Shown one piece after another: positions 4,534 through 12,367 of a DNA stretch of 32,000 nucleotides. Below the pieces are notes generated by a model. The model had not been told where the DNA came from. It saw only the letters and a program-made list of their open reading frames with translations, and ran no database searches. Numbering within the stretch: the stretch's first letter is position 1; each line of letters opens with the position of its first letter. Source of the stretch: Cyanobacteria bacterium RI_101 (GTDB lineage: Bacteria > Cyanobacteriota > Cyanobacteriia > Cyanobacteriales > Microcystaceae). The stretch lies in assembly GCA_016471375.1 (NCBI GenBank), contig WGLZ01000036.1, forward strand, positions 13,564 through 45,563, given 5' to 3'. A program made the translations under genes and the position numbers.

Positions 4534-4584
4534 CCGGGTCTTTTTTCCCTTTTTCCAGAATCAACCCCCTACCCCTACCCTGTT

Positions 4585-4992
4585 ATGGTTCTCAATGAGA
4601 GCGGCGCTTCTTTGGAGTCTTCGCTATACCTTCTGGAGGTGATCCCCCGCCCCCCCGCGACCCGACTTCTGCCCGCTAACCGCAATCGCTATTTTCTCAA
4701 GGTCGCCTACCCTCAACTCAGTCAAACCCTCCAGCGTTTGAGCCAGAAGGGCGACCGGGTGATCCAGGTTACCCCCACCTCCGCTCTCCAGCCCCCCGCG
4801 ACGGTGGCCTGGTGGATTGAAATTTACACTGACTATCCTCCCTGTCTTTATTACTTCGGCCCCTTTGAGAGCGAAGCGGAAGCCCAGGGCGCCGAGCAAG
4901 GGTTTATCGACGATCTACGAGAAGAAGGCGCCGAGCAAGTCGCGGCCCAAATTAAACCCTGTCGCCCCCAAATTTTGACCCAGGAATGGTGA
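4585..4992 (+). CDS. DUF1816-like conserved cyanobacterial protein, possibly with a short CpcD-like N-terminal segment
   Basis: WWIEIYTDYPPCLYYFGPFESEAEAQGAEQGFIDDLREEGA resembles the DUF1816 core. The preceding NRYFLKVAYPQLSQTLQRLSQKGDRVIQVTP resembles the C-terminal half of CpcD/linker domains (weak). Confidence 0.55.
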   Translation: MVLNESGASLESSLYLLEVIPRPPATRLLPANRNRYFLKVAYPQLSQTLQRLSQKGDRVIQVTPTSALQPPATVAWWIEIYTDYPPCLYYFGPFESEAEAQGAEQGFIDDLREEGAEQVAAQIKPCRPQILTQEW

Positions 4993-6801: not shown

Positions 6802-8091
6802 TTACTCGGCGCCGAAATATCCTAGGAGTTTGCCAGCGATCCTCTCGGCGCCGCCGGGAGGCCCTAAACGAGCGAGACCGTTGGCGGCCAAAATCCCTAA
6901 TTGACGGGGATCGGCGAGAATCTTCAGCAGTGCCGGGCCCGCCTCTTCCGGCGCGGACACAAGGATAACAGATTCTCCGAGGAGGAACGTTTGACGCCGG
7001 GCAAAGCTCTCGTTAAATTGGGGGCCGGCGCCGACGAGGGTAACGGCGGGTTTTCCGAGACCGACGACCTGTTCCGTAGCGGTTCCGGCCATGGCTAGGG
7101 CGGCGTCGGCCCAATGGAGGGCTTCGGGGTAGGCTCCCTGGGTGAGGATGAGGGACTGGTTCAACTTGCGTAAGGGCTTAATCTGGGGATCAAGACGGGC
7201 TAACTCGCCGGGGGGAAGTTGGGACTCCAAACGCCAGCCGTCCTCCAGCGCCAAATCCAGAAACGACTCTAGGGCCAATCCCGGCGCTAGCGCCGCTAGA
7301 GCCGCCACAGGGCGGGACGTCAAACCCGCTAAAGCTTTCAGTATTAAGCGCCAATTTTCATGGGCCTCCGGCGCTCGGGAACCCGGCAACAAGACTAATT
7401 TCAAAACGGCCGGGCTAATCTCCAGCAACGTCTCAAGATTGATCCGCGGCTCTAGTCCGTCCATCATCGGATTGCCGGCGTAGTCGTTAGAGAGGCCTAA
7501 TCGCTCTAAACCCTTGCAGGTGAGACTATCCCGGACTAAAACGCCCCGGCATCGGGGACGACTCAGGAGCCAGCGCTCCCAGGGATAATAATCCGAGGCT
7601 CGGCGCCAGAAACCGCTCTCGCCCCGGAGGTAGTAGTCGGATTTAGCGGTGCCCACAAAGGCGTAGTCGGCGCCGCTTCCCCAAGCCATCAACAAGGGGA
7701 CAATATCTCCCAGGGCCGCCACTTTCCCCCCGTCTCGGGCCCACCCTTGGATCGATTGGAACTGCCGGAGGGTCAAGGAACCTAAACCGCTTTTAAGATC
7801 CCGCCACAGTTGACGACTATCCATATAAATAAAGCCGCCGGAGGGTAGGGATTGCCCGTCTAAAAGAAACGGCGCGTCTAAAGCTCGATAAGCCCGACCT
7901 TCTCCCACCAGAGGTAAGACGGCATAGTGATGCTCCGGCGCTAATTGTTGTAAACAGCGAAGAACTTTAGCGGCGATCTGGTCTTCCCCGTGGCCATTGC
8001 TGACGAGAAGCAGATTCAGCGCCGGTTTTTGAGCCAGAACCATGGTTAGCCTAATTCTTTCTCTACCTTCATCAATCGGTTGAGAAAGCAT
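6802..8091 (-). CDS. Lipid-A-disaccharide synthase-related protein (TIGR03492-like, LpxB-related GT-B fold); the true start is probably the ATG at 8043
   Basis: LNLLLVSNGHGEDQIAAKVL is the typical N-terminus of this family, which favours the internal Met17 (8043). A perfect TATAAT on the minus strand at 8100-8105 sits only 9 nt from the 8091 ATG, which also argues for the downstream start. Confidence 0.7.
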   Translation of the reverse strand: MLSQPIDEGRERIRLTMVLAQKPALNLLLVSNGHGEDQIAAKVLRCLQQLAPEHHYAVLPLVGEGRAYRALDAPFLLDGQSLPSGGFIYMDSRQLWRDLKSGLGSLTLRQFQSIQGWARDGGKVAALGDIVPLLMAWGSGADYAFVGTAKSDYYLRGESGFWRRASDYYPWERWLLSRPRCRGVLVRDSLTCKGLERLGLSNDYAGNPMMDGLEPRINLETLLEISPAVLKLVLLPGSRAPEAHENWRLILKALAGLTSRPVAALAALAPGLALESFLDLALEDGWRLESQLPPGELARLDPQIKPLRKLNQSLILTQGAYPEALHWADAALAMAGTATEQVVGLGKPAVTLVGAGPQFNESFARRQTFLLGESVILVSAPEEAGPALLKILADPRQLGILAANGLARLGPPGGAERIAGKLLGYFGAE

Positions 8092-8099
8092 GACTAGGG

Positions 8100-8105
8100 A
8101 TTATA
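8100..8105 (-). promoter_or_regulatory. Candidate -10 box (TATAAT on the minus strand) for the lpxB-related gene
   Basis: Exact hexamer. It is positioned so that the transcript would start near 8093, giving a ~50-nt leader to the ATG at 8043. Confidence 0.3.
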
Positions 8106-8212
8106 CAAAATTTTCGTATGCTGTTCTCGGATCTCTTGCGCCGTCGCGGCCAGATCGACCATGGCAAAGCGGATTTCATGGTTTTGGATCAGAACGGACT
8201 CGTTCAGCCGAC

Positions 8213-8371
8213 AAAGAGGCCTTAACTGTTTTGGAGGTCAGTCTCGGCATTGGTCATTCTGATACCTAAACTGTTTGCACCAATTATAAGCGGTTTTCAC
8301 AGTAGTTAAAAAATGATTGATGACACAGGGTTAGACCCACCCCTAACCCCTTCAAGGAGGGGAACCCGAAA
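8213..8371 (+). pseudogene. Decayed 3' end of a paralogous TPR/NLR gene plus trailing hairpin repeat (left copy of the direct repeat flanking the NLR gene)
   Basis: Hand alignment to 10906-11064 gives 133/159 identical bases. It translates as KEALTVLEVSLGIGHSDT*TVCTNYKRFSQ*LKND*, against the intact REALAIFEVSLGTGHSDTRTVRANYERFLQQLNNE* of the NLR C-terminus. Two internal stops are present. Confidence 0.8.
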
Positions 8372-8436
8372 TATAATAGTCGTGTTCTATAATCTCGTTT
8401 TGGAAAGTTGTCCTATGATGAAGGAGGTTTGTCATT

Positions 8437-8865
8437 GTGGGAAAATTAGCTATGGATCCCATTACTGCGGCGTTACTGATGATTCTGGGCATTTACAGTA
8501 GTGGCATTGTCAATAAGGCTGGCGAAGATACTTGGGATGTCGGTCGTCAACTGCTAAGAAGGAAATTGGCTAATACCCCCACAGGCAAGGCGTTAGCCGC
8601 AGGGCAAGAACCGAATCCAGATCAAGCGCTTATAGATGTAGAAGCCATCAGCGCCGATCCTGAGCTAGAAGAACTTAAGTCTCAACTTCAGACGTTGCTG
8701 GCGCAGAACGAAGAGTTTAAACGACAAGCAGAAGCCATTAAAAAAAACATTCAAATTAATCGTGATCAGGCTCAGGGCTATCTGTTTGAGGGTGAAGTCA
8801 AATCACAATTTCTTGGCGGTACCCATATTCATCATCACGGCGCTGAGCGGCCTAAAACGGATTGA
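8437..8865 (+). CDS. 142-aa N-terminal module of the NLR-like locus (hydrophobic N-terminal helix, coiled-coil, G/Q/N-rich tail); ends at a TGA that is in frame with the NB-ARC ORF
   Basis: SD AAGGAGG (8421-8427) lies 9 nt before the GTG at 8437 (alternative ATG at 8452). Elements: DPITAALLMILGIYSSGIV hydrophobic helix; ELEELKSQLQTLLAQNEEFKRQAEAIKK amphipathic helix; NIQINRDQAQGYLFEGEVKSQFLGGTHIHHHG tail. No family recognised. Confidence 0.6.
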   Translation: MGKLAMDPITAALLMILGIYSSGIVNKAGEDTWDVGRQLLRRKLANTPTGKALAAGQEPNPDQALIDVEAISADPELEELKSQLQTLLAQNEEFKRQAEAIKKNIQINRDQAQGYLFEGEVKSQFLGGTHIHHHGAERPKTD

Positions 8866-8943
8866 CTGGAGTCGCCGGAGTCGAGAGCGCCGGTAAAGTT
8901 CAAGGCTCCCAATAATTTACGGAGAAAGTCAGTCGCCGCTTTT

Positions 8944-11013
8944 GTGGGGCGAGAAAAGCAACTGACGAAACTTCATCAGTGGTTAACGGCGGGGCAACGG
9001 GTCTCGGTCTGGGGTATGGGCGGCCTTGGTAAGTCGGAGTTGGTTCTGCAATATTGGGCCCGTCACAGTCAGGATTACCCCAGCGGGCTGATCTGGTTAG
9101 AAGCGCCGGAGGAGGCGGGTCAGGATATTGTCGTTTTTGGGAGCAACTGTCTCCATTTAGAACCCTCCCCAGAGTTGCCCATAGCCCAGAAGGTGGATCG
9201 GGTCTGGGCGCAATGGCCGGGGGAAGACCGGGTTTTGGTGGTGGCGGATAATCTCAACACGTTGGACGATTACCGTCTGGTTGAGAAGTTTTTACCCAGC
9301 GCCGACCGTTTTTGCGTCTTGGCTACCAGTCGGGTCAGGTTAACGGGGTTGAAGGAGTTGCCATTGGAGGAGTTGTCTCTGCCGGAAGCGGTGGAACTTT
9401 TGGAGCGCCGGAGTCAAGCACCGGAGCGGAGAAGCTGGGATCGGGCCGAAGCGGCAACTCTTTGTCAACGCTTGGGGCGCTTACCCCTGGCTATCGCCTT
9501 GGCGGGCAGTTACTTGGCCATAGATCCCAATTTGAGTTTGGGGGAGATCAGCGCCGAGCTTACGGCCAGGGGATTGGAGGCGCAGTATTTTCAAAACCCG
9601 GATTTGACGGTAGCCCAAAGGGGACTGAACGCGGTTTTCGATTTATCCTGGCAAGCCCTCGATCCACCGACCCAACGCTTGGCCGCTCTCTTAGCGATGT
9701 TTGCGGCGGCCCCTATTGAATGGCGTTTGGTGGAAAAGATCTTAATTTCTTCAGGCAACCCGACTTTAGACCAATTTAGTTTAAGAGATCTCAGGCAAAC
9801 TCTGCTCCGCTACGCTTTATTACAGTCTGTGGAATTACCGGAAGAGGGGTTATCCGGCTATCAATTGCATCCCCTGATCTGGGACTATTTCCGGCGCCAG
9901 ATTCCTAATTGTCTGGATCAGCCCGCCCGACAGGCCTTTGTTACGGTGCTGGTCGCGGAGGCAGAAACAATTGCCTACAATGCGCCCCTAGAAGACTATG
10001 AAAAGGCGCGGGCTTCTATTCCCCATATTGCGGAAGTAGCGGAAACTTGGGCGAACGACTTGGCTGATGAGGATCTGATTACGCCCTACACAGGACTCAG
10101 TCGCTTTTATGAAGGTTTTCTTGACTATCAACTGTCTGAAGTTTACTTAAATAAAGGTCTCTCCCTATCCCGACGGCGCCTACCCCAAAACCATCCCGAT
10201 ATTGCCGCCGCCCTCAACAACCTAGCGGTACTGTATAAGTTCTTAGGGAGGTATAATGAAGCTGAGCCTCTCTATACAGAAGTGTTATTAATTCTCTCCA
10301 AATTTTTGCCAAAAAATGATCCAATTTTGGCCATCACTCTCAACAACTTAGCAGAACTATATCAAGTGCAAGAAAAATATAAAGAAGCGGAGCTTCTCTA
10401 CAAAAATGCTCTAGATATTGACTTAAAATCCTTACCTGCTAGTTATCTCAATTTAGCAACTCACCTTAACAATTTAGGTGGATTGTACCAAGCGCAGGGT
10501 AGATATAGCGAGGCGGAACCTCTCTACACAGAAGGGCTGAGCATCATCCGTCAAATCTTACTCCCCGATCATCCCCAATTAGCACGTCACCTCAACAACT
10601 TGGCTGGTCTATACCAAGCTCAAGGTCGGTATAGTGAAGCGGAATCCCTCTACACAGAGGCGTTAGCTATTGACCGTCAGTCTTTAGTTTCCAATCATCC
10701 TTACTTAGCCAGTCATCTCCACAATTTGGGATTTCTGTACAGATCTCAAGAGAAATACAGTGAAGCAGAATCTTTCTACAGAGAGGCTATAGCCATTGAT
10801 CGGCAATCCTTACGCCCCAATCATCCTCAATTAGCCAATCATCTGAACAATTTGGCATTATTGTGCGAAATGCAAAAAAAATACAGGGAAGCGGACCCCC
10901 TCTACAGAGAAGCTTTGGCTATTTTTGAAGTCAGCCTCGGCACTGGTCATTCTGATACCCGAACCGTTCGCGCCAATTACGAGCGGTTTTTACAGCAGTT
11001 AAACAATGAATGA
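8944..11013 (+). CDS. STAND NTPase: NB-ARC domain + six KLC-type TPR repeats (NLR-like). The homologous reading frame actually continues upstream to 8866
   Basis: P-loop GMGGLGKS, Walker B RVLVVADNL, LATSR (RNBS-B/TTR-like), GRLPLAIALAG (GLPL-like) and QLHPLIWDY (MHD-like). These are followed by 42-aa repeats of the form HPxLAxxLNNLAxLYxxQGRYSEAEPLYxEAL. Codons 8866-8943 (…APNNLRRKSVAAF) complete the usual FVGRE pre-P-loop motif. Confidence 0.9.
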   Translation: MGREKQLTKLHQWLTAGQRVSVWGMGGLGKSELVLQYWARHSQDYPSGLIWLEAPEEAGQDIVVFGSNCLHLEPSPELPIAQKVDRVWAQWPGEDRVLVVADNLNTLDDYRLVEKFLPSADRFCVLATSRVRLTGLKELPLEELSLPEAVELLERRSQAPERRSWDRAEAATLCQRLGRLPLAIALAGSYLAIDPNLSLGEISAELTARGLEAQYFQNPDLTVAQRGLNAVFDLSWQALDPPTQRLAALLAMFAAAPIEWRLVEKILISSGNPTLDQFSLRDLRQTLLRYALLQSVELPEEGLSGYQLHPLIWDYFRRQIPNCLDQPARQAFVTVLVAEAETIAYNAPLEDYEKARASIPHIAEVAETWANDLADEDLITPYTGLSRFYEGFLDYQLSEVYLNKGLSLSRRRLPQNHPDIAAALNNLAVLYKFLGRYNEAEPLYTEVLLILSKFLPKNDPILAITLNNLAELYQVQEKYKEAELLYKNALDIDLKSLPASYLNLATHLNNLGGLYQAQGRYSEAEPLYTEGLSIIRQILLPDHPQLARHLNNLAGLYQAQGRYSEAESLYTEALAIDRQSLVSNHPYLASHLHNLGFLYRSQEKYSEAESFYREAIAIDRQSLRPNHPQLANHLNNLALLCEMQKKYREADPLYREALAIFEVSLGTGHSDTRTVRANYERFLQQLNNE
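10192..10947 (+). repeat. Six tandem 126-bp (42-aa) TPR-coding units inside the NLR gene
   Basis: The exact 126-bp periodicity was verified in frame (10192 + 6x126 = 10948). The units are diverged at synonymous sites, so they are not recent duplications. Confidence 0.85.
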
Positions 11014-11064
11014 TGACACAGGGCTAGACCCACCCCTAACCCCTCCAAGGAGCGGAACCGGAAA
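10906..11064 (+). repeat. Right copy of the ~159-bp direct repeat flanking the NLR gene (NLR 3' end plus hairpin unit GACCCACCCCTAACCCCTCCAAGGAGCGGAACCGGAA)
   Basis: See the alignment to 8213-8371. Confidence 0.8.
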
Positions 11065-11068
11065 CTTT

Positions 11069-12367
11069 ATGCCTGAGCCGCCAGCCGAAAATTCCCTTTC
11101 CCCCGCTCCCAAACTGCGCCACCGGGGCCGAATTTTTGCGCCTCGCCCCAGTCCCTACGAACGAGTCCTTTGGCCCTGGGTGCAGATGAAAAACCTCTTC
11201 CAGCGCCTCTACCGGTTTTGTCTGCGTCTCCTCTGGGCGGAATTGCTAGAGGGCAAAACCCAGGAGGAAGAATGGCTCAATTTACTCTTATTTGTCCTGT
11301 TCCTGTTTCTCTCCTGGTTAAGCTATCGCCTCTCCCAAACGGCGCCGTGGGTCGCCTTCAGCTTTTTTGTCCTCTGGTATCTGGATTATGCCCTAGCGGT
11401 TCGGGCCTATCGACGGGGCCAAGCTTGGCGGGCCGTGGAACTCAGCGAAAACAGCGCCGGCCTTTGGCAGTGGCGGAGTCAGGTGGCCCCCTTTCGCTGG
11501 GACTTTACCCCGGAGCAGACCCGACGATTAACGATTACCCTGCGGGAATTGCGGGCCGGCGCTTTTAGTCATCGTCTGGGGCGAGTCTGGCAATTAAAGC
11601 TTTTACTGATGGATCAATCAGATTGGCTACTGGCGGAAAGCGAGCGCCTGCCAGACCTCTTGGCCCTAGCCCAACCCCTACAAACCGCCCTAGATCTAGA
11701 CTGCGTCTTCGCCGACAGCGCCGGTTGGGGGAGCTACGCCGAACAGGGCATTGTTACCCAGTCTCTAGCGCTCCCTCCGGGGCAACGGCCCGGGGTGGGT
11801 TGTCAGATTACGTCCGCCAAGTGGCATATTTTTTCCCGGTGGCGCTGGGGGGATTCCTGGGCCTTTCTCAAGGAATTGGTTCGGGAATCGGGTTTTTTAA
11901 TCTTCGCGCTCCTGACGTCGGGGTTTATGCTCCAGGCGGGGCGGCTGATCGACGGGGTGCTAACCGCCAGAACCGTTACCTTCTCCCTTGGCTTTGGCAG
12001 AGGCTATTCCTGGCTCACTCTCCTCTCTCTTGTCGGCGCCGTAGGGATTTTAATCTATCGGGGTTGGCAGTTGAGCCGCCAAAAACACACCGTCATTGAC
12101 CGCCATTTCCTACGTTTTTTCCTGGATCAGTATGCTTTGGGTAAACTCCCCACCCAACAGGTCGTCTCGGCGCTGTTTTCACCCCAAAAGGACGTCGGCT
12201 TAGTGTTCTTAACGGCGGATCAGGCGCTGATTCTACCACCCCTCCCCCAGGAAAGCGACAACCTCCGCTATCTCCAAAGTCTCTACGAAGCCCTGCTCTG
12301 TTTTCAGCAACCCCCGGCGCTGGAGGAAGAGGATTTGGAAAATGAGTCAACGCCCGATCCCCCCTAA
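11069..12367 (+). CDS. Hypothetical integral membrane protein with two TM-hairpin + soluble-module units. The track start at 11006 lies inside repeat DNA; ATG 11069 or 11186 is more likely
   Basis: TM pairs LNLLLFVLFLFLSWLSY / WVAFSFFVLWYLDYALAV and GFLIFALLTSGFMLQAG / WLTLLSLVGAVGILIY, each followed by a ~90-130 aa soluble segment (layout reminiscent of bacterial PH / YdbT-like proteins; weak). GC content and octamer content are native. Confidence 0.6.
   Translation: MPEPPAENSLSPAPKLRHRGRIFAPRPSPYERVLWPWVQMKNLFQRLYRFCLRLLWAELLEGKTQEEEWLNLLLFVLFLFLSWLSYRLSQTAPWVAFSFFVLWYLDYALAVRAYRRGQAWRAVELSENSAGLWQWRSQVAPFRWDFTPEQTRRLTITLRELRAGAFSHRLGRVWQLKLLLMDQSDWLLAESERLPDLLALAQPLQTALDLDCVFADSAGWGSYAEQGIVTQSLALPPGQRPGVGCQITSAKWHIFSRWRWGDSWAFLKELVRESGFLIFALLTSGFMLQAGRLIDGVLTARTVTFSLGFGRGYSWLTLLSLVGAVGILIYRGWQLSRQKHTVIDRHFLRFFLDQYALGKLPTQQVVSALFSPQKDVGLVFLTADQALILPPLPQESDNLRYLQSLYEALLCFQQPPALEEEDLENESTPDPP

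Follow-up and report, generated by a model that had tools for sequence, protein, structure and literature searches.

A conserved leaky stop codon and a covarying hairpin between a Bell-type effector and an NB-ARC-TPR protein point to probable programmed readthrough in cyanobacteria

The locus studied here poses the question of how ribosomes reach an NB-ARC-TPR protein of the NLR type that is separated from an upstream module by a single in-frame stop codon. It lies within a stretch of 32,000 nucleotides (the window) of contig WGLZ01000036.1 from the metagenome-assembled genome (MAG) ‘Cyanobacteria bacterium RI_101’. The upstream open reading frame (ORF) 8437–8865, called below the N-module, and ORF 8944–11013 share one frame and are split by the TGA at 8863–8865, which is followed by 26 codons without ATG, GTG, or TTG; this anatomy, described earlier in an interpretation made from the letters alone (the sequence-only reading), was confirmed. 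Three explanations had been proposed there: an all-in-one NLR broken by a nonsense mutation or an assembly error, readthrough at TGA-C that yields mostly free N-module and little full-length NLR, and a two-gene system of effector and sensor. The second is the best-supported one, given the leaky stops with C at position +4, the hairpin behind them, the lack of a conserved start or of a motif on the NLR, and a peptide from Nostoc 7120. We consider it probable that the locus is a one-frame variant of the Bell/BASS–NLR amyloid-signaling cell-death system, expressed by programmed stop-codon readthrough.

The region upstream of the P-loop was scanned in 80 cyanobacterial loci recovered by an NB-ARC profile. 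With the window and locus L013 added, the same layout was found in 33 loci, i.e., in the window and 32 others, and one more locus (L021) carries a damaged N-module. The layout consists of an upstream ORF (~130–165 aa where complete), one in-frame stop, and a segment of the form L-Q/E-S-P-E..VK.NP..PQNLP.SGVVKFVGR, the distance from the stop to the P-loop being 49–61 codons. The hosts are Nostoc, Anabaena, Calothrix, Nodularia, Acaryochloris, Okeania, Symploca, Leptolyngbyaceae, and others. Clustering at 70% identity divides the 33 loci into 11 groups; the window NLR is 35–55% identical to the other junction NLRs. The finished genomes with the junction include those of Acaryochloris marina MBIC11017 (pREB4) and Calothrix NIES-4101 and the Nostoc 7120-type chromosomes. 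The stop codon is TGA in 29 loci and TAG in 4; neither TAA nor a sense codon occurs at this place, so the comparison of orthologs called for earlier shows a conserved stop.

Since the same junction is present in 32 other loci, including those of finished genomes, a sequencing error or a recent nonsense mutation is ruled out, and the first of the three earlier explanations falls. An assembly or sequencing error could be suspected as the source is a MAG, but the Logan assembly of the self sequence, which is independent, has the same TGA (P0001, P0003), and so does the homologous site of the finished genomes; we regard such an error as practically negligible. A decaying pseudogene, in which a nonsense mutation has inactivated an all-in-one NLR, would agree with a single in-frame stop in a MAG, with the damaged N-module of L021, and with the 161-nt repeat and TPR fragment flanking the locus, which point to local rearrangement. 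However, all 33 loci have the stop at the homologous place, the ORFs flanking it are intact, purifying selection acts downstream, there are no further stops or frameshifts, no locus has a sense codon at the stop, and the level of identity given above shows that the related loci are not one recent clone. A pseudogene is therefore very improbable.

The choice of stop codons is unusual. The base following the junction stop (+4) is C in 32 of the 33 loci. In background ORFs of the same loci, TAA prevails (136, or 55%), followed by TAG (63) and TGA (46), and among the 28 window ORFs of at least 200 codons, 16 end with TAA, 10 with TAG, and 2 with TGA, with no case of TGA-C. UGA-C is the weakest bacterial terminator, and readthrough decreases in the order UGA > UAG > UAA (PMC5289835, where a coliphage readthrough case is also cited). 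A conserved in-frame stop limited to leaky codons and contexts in diverged homologs is a feature of readthrough genes. A frameshift or ribosome hop was considered as well and rejected, because the downstream ORF continues in frame 0 and conservation is lacking in the codons that precede the stop.

A conserved RNA element can be noted right after the stop. In the family it has the form UGA-CUNNANUC-[GYCNG]-loop-[CNGRY]-AAAG, with a hairpin of 5 bp, and this helix alone was predicted by RNAalifold on the junction alignment. Its pairing is preserved in 98.1% of cells, whereas sliding the partner gives at most 37.5%. Compensatory changes were found in three of the five pairs, with 23 double-change cells versus 6.3 ± 3.1 in shuffles (0/500). 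In the Nostoc-type subset, a synonymous proline codon change (CCC/CCT) covaries with Arg/Gln (CGG/CAG) five codons on (Fisher p = 0.03), which is hard to explain at the protein level. Besides the stem, the sequences of the spacer and the loop are conserved, and all three loop-length variants differ by exactly 3 nt, i.e., by multiples of three. A possible outer helix between the stop with the next 2 nt and AGUYA is paired in 92.4% of cells, and the TAG variants keep this pairing; most of its pairs hardly vary, and four of the five form in the window.

The covariance model of the element (R1) scores 43 bits in the window (E = 2e-7), and in 583 kb it matches only such junctions; its matches outside the training set are L021, the second tandem copy in L057, and L001/L002. 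Over the first ~10 codons past the stop, constraint acts on the nucleotides, with a synonymous substitution rate (dS) of 0.12–0.5 versus at least about 1 further downstream, and in columns 5–10 after the stop, the third positions are more conserved than the first and second ones. The source of this constraint is the 5-bp hairpin. No Rfam family was found at the junction. A metagenome scan with a degenerate hairpin pattern returned 120 chance matches, none beside an NLR, the pattern being too weak for a collection of this size. A covarying hairpin is present 8 nt after the stop, and it may have a stimulatory role. Taken together, the recurrence in 32 other loci, the stop-codon bias, and the covarying hairpin put the arrangement far beyond chance.

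A hairpin close to an in-frame UGA also resembles the geometry of the bacterial selenocysteine insertion sequence (SECIS). Selenocysteine recoding itself was rejected, as its UGA specificity does not agree with the TAG of four loci. More generally, the stop could be recoded efficiently by a dedicated mechanism, possibly with a hairpin-recognizing factor like SelB, so that the main product would be an all-in-one Bell–NLR like Avast2 and the free effector a by-product. The conservation of the spacer, loop, and stem fits this idea, and all-in-one NLRs with a ‘MEPIS’ N-terminus exist and work. Nevertheless, the TAG variants indicate a mechanism not tied to one codon or to selenocysteine, a sense codon would suffice if the fusion were the goal, and the effector family is otherwise always stand-alone, with proteins of ~140 aa. 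We consider efficient recoding improbable.

The downstream part of the locus is a genuine STAND NB-ARC and TPR protein, as had been proposed from its motifs. When a profile was built from the window NLR together with related proteins, it matched AfsR (1e-26) as well as plant NLRs (Roq1, NRC, and ZAR1). Pfam finds TPR_10 in six stretches of the window NLR and TPR_12 at 5e-58; the Pfam NB-ARC match to this protein alone is weak (E = 0.009, under the cut-off), and the domain was found in its homologs. The motifs GMGGLGKS, VLVVADNL, GRLPLAI, and LHPL are present. The effector gene adjoins the NB-ARC-TPR gene and is collinear with it, as in Bell/BASS–NLR pairs, and the neighboring genes are housekeeping ones (sulfotransferase, LpxB-like, YggS-like, PipX, ArgRS).

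As for the upstream part, no N-module family was found in Pfam, NCBIfam, or PADLOC, where only chance coiled-coil matches appeared. Its relatives are short cyanobacterial “hypothetical proteins”: 26 representatives of 55–170 aa were obtained, and the family comprises 466 short cyanobacterial homologs. A fusion with an NLR or anything else is absent among the 120 family members listed (114–198 aa), and no fused effector–NLR homolog occurs among the 26 representative matches. Family members begin with M-E/D-P-I/V-T, followed by a hydrophobic helix, a helical region, and a short N/Q/G-rich tail of one of several interchangeable types; in the alignment of 58 sequences, M1, E2, and P3 are near-invariant. 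This consensus bears on the start of the effector. The AAGGAGG proposed as a Shine–Dalgarno sequence was confirmed at its place, and its spacing fits GTG 8437; the consensus N-terminus, however, favors ATG 8452, so the earlier choice of GTG 8437 is upheld by the spacing and questioned by the family. The 137-aa form starting from ATG 8452 is identical to the NCBI hypothetical protein GC158_07160 (‘Cyanobacteria bacterium RI_101’).

The AlphaFold2 (AF2) model of the N-module (predicted local distance difference test, pLDDT, 72.9) contains helix 1 and five more helices, and the tail is of low confidence or disordered. The fold search suggested earlier gave no relative: with two AF2 models (pLDDT 67.5 and 72.9), Foldseek against the PDB returned nothing below E = 1. 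The published hallmarks of Bell-type cell-death domains are a “MEPIS” N-terminus and then a BASS amyloid-signaling motif; the “MEPIS” N-terminal region is common to Bell, Hell, Bab, and Avast2 (bioRxiv 10.1101/2024.11.07.622273). In the window protein, the effector domain (~100 aa) is alpha-helical, and the hydrophobic helix at its N-terminus is conserved and of the MEPIS type. Because its MEPIS-like start, helical region, and N/Q/G-rich tail match these hallmarks, the N-module is assigned, by sequence, to the Bell-type effectors with a BASS-like tail. The earlier guess at HeLo/Bell-type helices and amyloid motifs was thereby borne out.

The tail was compared with NLR N-termini, the operational criterion for a BASS being the same motif on the effector and on the NLR. 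Over 25 aa, the window tail shares 48% identity (E = 5e-8) with the N-terminus of P0008, a related NLR from the sister locus L010. In this locus, a 131-aa effector homolog with the C-terminus NIQINKDQAQGYQFNDKIKAQSIGGIHYHD overlaps (CATGACTGA) the NLR, which shares 45% identity with the window NLR and begins with MTDQDQSQRYEFNDKVEAQFIGGIHYHE; the effector tail and the NLR N-terminus of L010 form a motif pair with 65% identity (E = 6e-13). The same motif thus stands on both proteins of L010. On the window NLR no copy was found, as the window tail gives no alignment to its N-terminus. The window tail fits a BASS by composition and position, and amyloid formation is predicted for it; in the window locus, the motif would exist on the NLR only in the readthrough product.

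As an internal control, the N-module hidden Markov model (HMM) was used to find every effector–NLR pair, whatever the frame. All 32 distinct junction-type pairs are in frame, versus 1 of 10 for the ordinary pairs (n = 11), whose effector stops are TGA in four cases, TAA in four, and TAG in three. In the ordinary pairs, the NLR has its own ATG and its own copy of the motif, and the hairpin is absent. The sister loci can be recognized as the canonical Bell/BASS and BASS–NLR gene pair, the evolutionary relative of the window layout. The two-gene system of the sequence-only reading therefore exists in the sister loci, whereas the window layout itself is in one frame and lacks the NLR motif.

The linker between the stop and the P-loop aligns with LQSPE.E.VK.NP..PQNLP.SGVVKF of the 32 other loci. 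None of the alignment columns in this interval holds a conserved canonical start, the best one being occupied in 21 of the 33 loci, and in several loci the first canonical start comes only after FVGRE. In L074 (A. marina pREB4), there is no ATG, GTG, or TTG before the P-loop, and RefSeq starts the NLR at ATT for this reason. The distal linker (K.NP..PQNLP.SG) has a ratio of non-synonymous to synonymous substitution rates (dN/dS) of about 0.27–0.29 and a two- to threefold excess of third-position change, which indicates purifying selection, and 31 of the 33 loci have no start upstream of it. As expected of readthrough genes, the extension behind the stop codes for protein, has no initiation site of its own, and stays in frame with indels in multiples of three. 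A CTG start just after the stop was rejected, since 19 of the 33 loci carry CTA or CTC at this codon and one carries CCA. Existing annotations of the NLR start disagree: it is ATT at 3049 in L215 (the same as L074; A. marina RefSeq), GTG at 4029 in L216, and GTG at 4041 in L217, the last two being Nostoc 7120-type assemblies, and in L218 (AP018216.1) the NLR has no gene call. This conflict is due to the missing start codon.

Translation of the linker is documented in a homolog. In the proteogenomic study of Nostoc sp. PCC 7120 (PMC8557916), a six-frame search was performed with five search engines at a false discovery rate below 1%, and Table S6A lists the genome-search-specific peptides LNPEIPQNLPLSGVVK, FVGRDEELQELHK, AENVGLQVVQFAR, and SLLAETPER. 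All four map to the NLR of the homologous Nostoc 7120 locus. The peptide LNPEIPQNLPLSGVVK is tryptic, is preceded by Arg, and is encoded from 10 codons after the TGA, 13 codons 5′ of the first canonical start. The start-less linker of this homolog is therefore translated in frame by ribosomes. The effector C-terminal peptide, LQSPEQER, and a revised gene model were not found in the text of the supplement. A stop-spanning peptide (GAMVAQQITIQEQHNTYN-X-LQSPEQER) cannot be found in a six-frame database, because such databases break at stop codons.

Several facts weigh against readthrough, and most of them bear on the possibility that two proteins are made separately. According to this alternative, termination at the stop is ordinary, and translation of the NLR begins on its own from an internal or non-canonical codon (GTG 8944 in the window); the hairpin would serve translational coupling, mRNA processing, or regulation, and the effector and the motif-less NLR would communicate otherwise. 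Gene callers do find starts, namely the GTG and ATT codons mentioned above; a GTG is present in the SGVVKF segment of 19 of the 33 loci, including 8944 of the window, and these are possible starts. Locus L009 keeps an NLR that is 92% identical to the window one, has no N-module, and opens at the GTG matching 8944. The first ~10 codons after the stop are constrained at the RNA level and not at the protein level, showing no protein-coding signature, and their translation is presumed only from the conservation of the frame. The peptide LNPEIPQNLPLSGVVK is incompatible with canonical internal starts, yet it would still agree with non-canonical initiation somewhere in the first 10 codons. Neither a stop-spanning peptide nor a fusion-sized protein is on record, although the published six-frame search could not reveal such a peptide. 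The canonical relatives are true two-gene systems. Other doubts concern the signal itself. Many junction loci are Nostocales paralogs, and thus the counts are not independent. The hairpin is small, with a folding term of −6.5 kcal/mol, and single-sequence z-scores are not significant, so the case for it rests on covariation. We also know of no structure-stimulated readthrough in bacteria besides SECIS.

On the other side, the start positions expected from separate initiation are not conserved, and L074 has none. A start at 8944 would drop the conserved pre-P-loop segment, which is under purifying selection, and in Nostoc 7120 the listed peptide LNPEIPQNLPLSGVVK already begins 13 codons before any canonical start. 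Separate initiation also leaves unexplained the exclusive use of leaky stops, the C at +4, the strict frame, and the loop indels in multiples of three, and the NLR would have no motif for signaling to the effector. We judge the synthesis of two separate proteins unlikely, though it deserves attention.

Programmed stop-codon readthrough that gives mostly free effector and a little effector–NLR fusion is the mechanism we favor, with moderate confidence. From the features described, we infer the following course of events. Ribosomes would translate the Bell-type effector with its hydrophobic helix 1, helical bundle, and amyloid-motif tail. The majority would stop at UGA-C (8863) and release the free effector, while a minority would insert an amino acid at the stop and go on into the NB-ARC-TPR part, probably aided by the hairpin 8 nt downstream, which would be at the mRNA entrance of the ribosome while the stop occupies the A site. 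The readthrough product would be a small amount of Bell–BASS–NB-ARC–TPR fusion. A trigger sensed by the TPR/NB-ARC part would lead to oligomerization and bring the tail motifs together; the clustered tails would seed an amyloid fold, which would template the free effector pool, and the templated effector would release helix 1, causing membrane damage (abortive infection or regulated cell death). Amyloid seeding followed by membrane attack has been proposed for Bell/BASS systems and shown for Bab/Agp (bioRxiv 10.1101/2024.11.07.622273). Readthrough would be the sole route by which NLRs of this class gain the motif that their canonical relatives carry N-terminally. That a whole clade of cyanobacterial NLRs is expressed by hairpin-assisted conserved readthrough, with one frame giving a free Bell/amyloid effector and a rare sensor-tethered form, is a broader claim, toward which we lean slightly less firmly. 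The coordinates of the features are collected in Table 1.

Table 1. Features of the effector–NLR locus and its surroundings in the window.
Feature	Coordinates	Strand	Remarks
Direct repeat, 161 nt, upstream copy	8211..8371	+	Second copy at 10904-11064 over the NLR 3′ end; 84% identity; spacing 2693 nt
Shine–Dalgarno-like AAGGAGG	8421..8427	+	9 nt 5′ of GTG 8437; read from sequence
Effector ORF (N-module)	8437..8865	+	142 aa from GTG 8437 or 137 aa from ATG 8452; putative Bell-type helical domain, then C-terminal tail
N-terminal hydrophobic helix 1, MDPITAALLMILG	8458..8484	+	‘MEPIS’-type region of Bell/Hell/Bab/Avast2 domains; AF2 helix, residues 3-11
C-terminal N/Q/G/H-rich tail, NIQINRDQAQGYLFEGEVKSQFLGGTHIHHHG	8746..8841	+	BASS-like putative amyloid-signaling motif
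In-frame TGA	8863..8865	+	Followed by C at 8866; conserved
Start-less linker, LESPESRAPVKFKAPNNLRRKSVAAF	8866..8943	+	26 codons; pre-P-loop segment of the NLR
Spacer of 8 nt, CTGGAGTC (consensus CUNNANUC)	8866..8873	+	From junction alignments
Conserved hairpin	8874..8894	+	5′ arm GCCGG 8874-8878; 11-nt loop; 3′ arm CCGGT 8890-8894
Possible outer helix partner AGTTC	8897..8901	+	Pairs with TGACT 8863-8867; weakly supported
NB-ARC (STAND) NTPase module	8941..9880	+	FVGRE 8941-8955; P-loop GMGGLGKS 9013-9036; extends to LHPL
TPR sensor region and ORF end	10027..11013	+	Six TPR_10/12 repeats

Some further observations concern the surroundings of the locus. The 161-nt repeat is the NLR 3′ end plus ~50 nt, duplicated upstream of the effector gene, and the 2.7-kb repeat unit is flanked by housekeeping genes. 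ORF 8090–8269 ends with ...EALTVLEVSLGIGHSDT, like the NLR C-terminus. The repeat has the appearance of a remnant left by a second NLR/TPR gene or by a tandem duplication. A predicted ORF of 453 aa (11006–12367) has no Pfam match, contains hydrophobic stretches, and shares an 8-nt overlap with the NLR stop. Roughly the first 20 codons of this ORF belong to the repeat (MNDDTGLDPPLTP...), and a spurious ORF at 8313 begins with the same peptide.

Related loci show several variations of the layout. In L009 (4700–5080; JGI 3300057200, P0004), whose NLR is mentioned above, there is no upstream effector gene; homology to the window ends just 5′ of the GTG equivalent to 8944, and a divergent adh_short gene is located 254 bp away. 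Either L009 is a copy that was decapitated recently, or it shows that the NLR is able to exist by itself. L001 (1183–3481; also L002–L008; P0002) contains the closest homolog of the window effector (64% identity) and keeps TGA-C and the hairpin (34 bits); the effector is followed by a 97-codon in-frame extension that matches no family, and next comes a separate TPR-only protein of 537 aa, which lacks NB-ARC. L057, a Leptolyngbyaceae contig, has two stop and hairpin junctions in tandem (418–470 and 4576–4628), and thus junction loci can form arrays. Downstream of the A. marina NLR (L074/L215, 5723–6697), a 325-aa ORF matches the N-module HMM over its first ~140 residues (E 1e-10) and may be a Bell-type domain fused to something else. 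Toxin–antitoxin genes (PIN, ParE/RelB) adjoin many related loci (L001, L010, L013, L216), as in defense islands; none was found at the window locus.

If readthrough is confirmed, we know of no earlier example of a conserved and structured readthrough signal in chromosomal genes of bacteria, and the junction would represent both a new recoding signal (a leaky stop and a hairpin) in an immune gene family and a new wiring of amyloid signaling. A single motif sequence would act both as nucleator and as substrate, and their stoichiometry would depend on how efficiently termination occurs; for amyloid signaling in bacteria and fungi, this suggests a solution to the matching of effector and receptor motifs and to the large excess of a lethal effector over its trigger. 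It would also explain the arbitrary start codons, even ATT, annotated for these NLRs. Searches that require the motif at the NLR N-terminus miss this class of Bell–NLR systems. Nostoc/Anabaena sp. PCC 7120, a model organism with public proteomics, carries the same junction, so the idea is directly testable. A literature search found no description of readthrough in NLR or amyloid-signaling genes, and a term search of the preprint of Dyrka et al. (bioRxiv 10.1101/2020.01.06.895854) found no mention of stop codons or readthrough.

The proposed system can be compared with known ones in two respects, namely its expression and its composition. To our knowledge, phage Qbeta and selenoproteins are nearly the only documented cases of programmed readthrough in bacteria. 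Well-known examples of readthrough are the Qbeta coat/A1 protein (UGA) and retroviral gag-pol (UAG and a pseudoknot 8 nt downstream). The junction shares with them a leaky in-frame stop, a predicted abundant short product and a rare extended one, and the 3′ context (+4 C); with gag-pol, it also shares a structured element after an 8-nt spacer. Unlike them, it belongs to a chromosomal bacterial immune gene family and has a simple 5-bp hairpin, and its readthrough is predicted from sequence. Bacterial SECIS elements likewise combine an in-frame UGA with a close conserved hairpin inside the coding sequence, whereas at the junction TAG replaces TGA in four loci and a selenoprotein context is absent.

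As for composition, the predicted fusion resembles the all-in-one Avast2/Avs2 and bNACHT02/11/23 proteins in that a helical, membrane-targeting domain at the N-terminus is combined with a STAND NTPase and repeats. However, those are uninterrupted ORFs with no amyloid motif, while here a stop lies between the modules in 33/33 loci and a pool of free effector is expected. With the Bell/BASS–NLR pairs (Dyrka et al. 2020, bioRxiv 10.1101/2020.01.06.895854) and the E. coli Bab/Agp antiphage system (bioRxiv 10.1101/2024.11.07.622273), the locus shares a small helical effector that has a hydrophobic ‘MEPIS’-type N-terminus and a C-terminal N/Q/G-rich motif of ~25 aa and lies directly 5′ of, and collinear with, an NB-ARC-TPR NLR, here a cyanobacterial one. 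The locus differs from them in that the window NLR has neither a motif copy nor a start of its own and that both parts lie in one frame with a conserved leaky stop and a covarying hairpin; the motif on the NLR, which defines such pairs, would appear in the window only if readthrough occurs. The junction-type system is a descendant of the Bell/BASS–NLR amyloid-signaling pairs.

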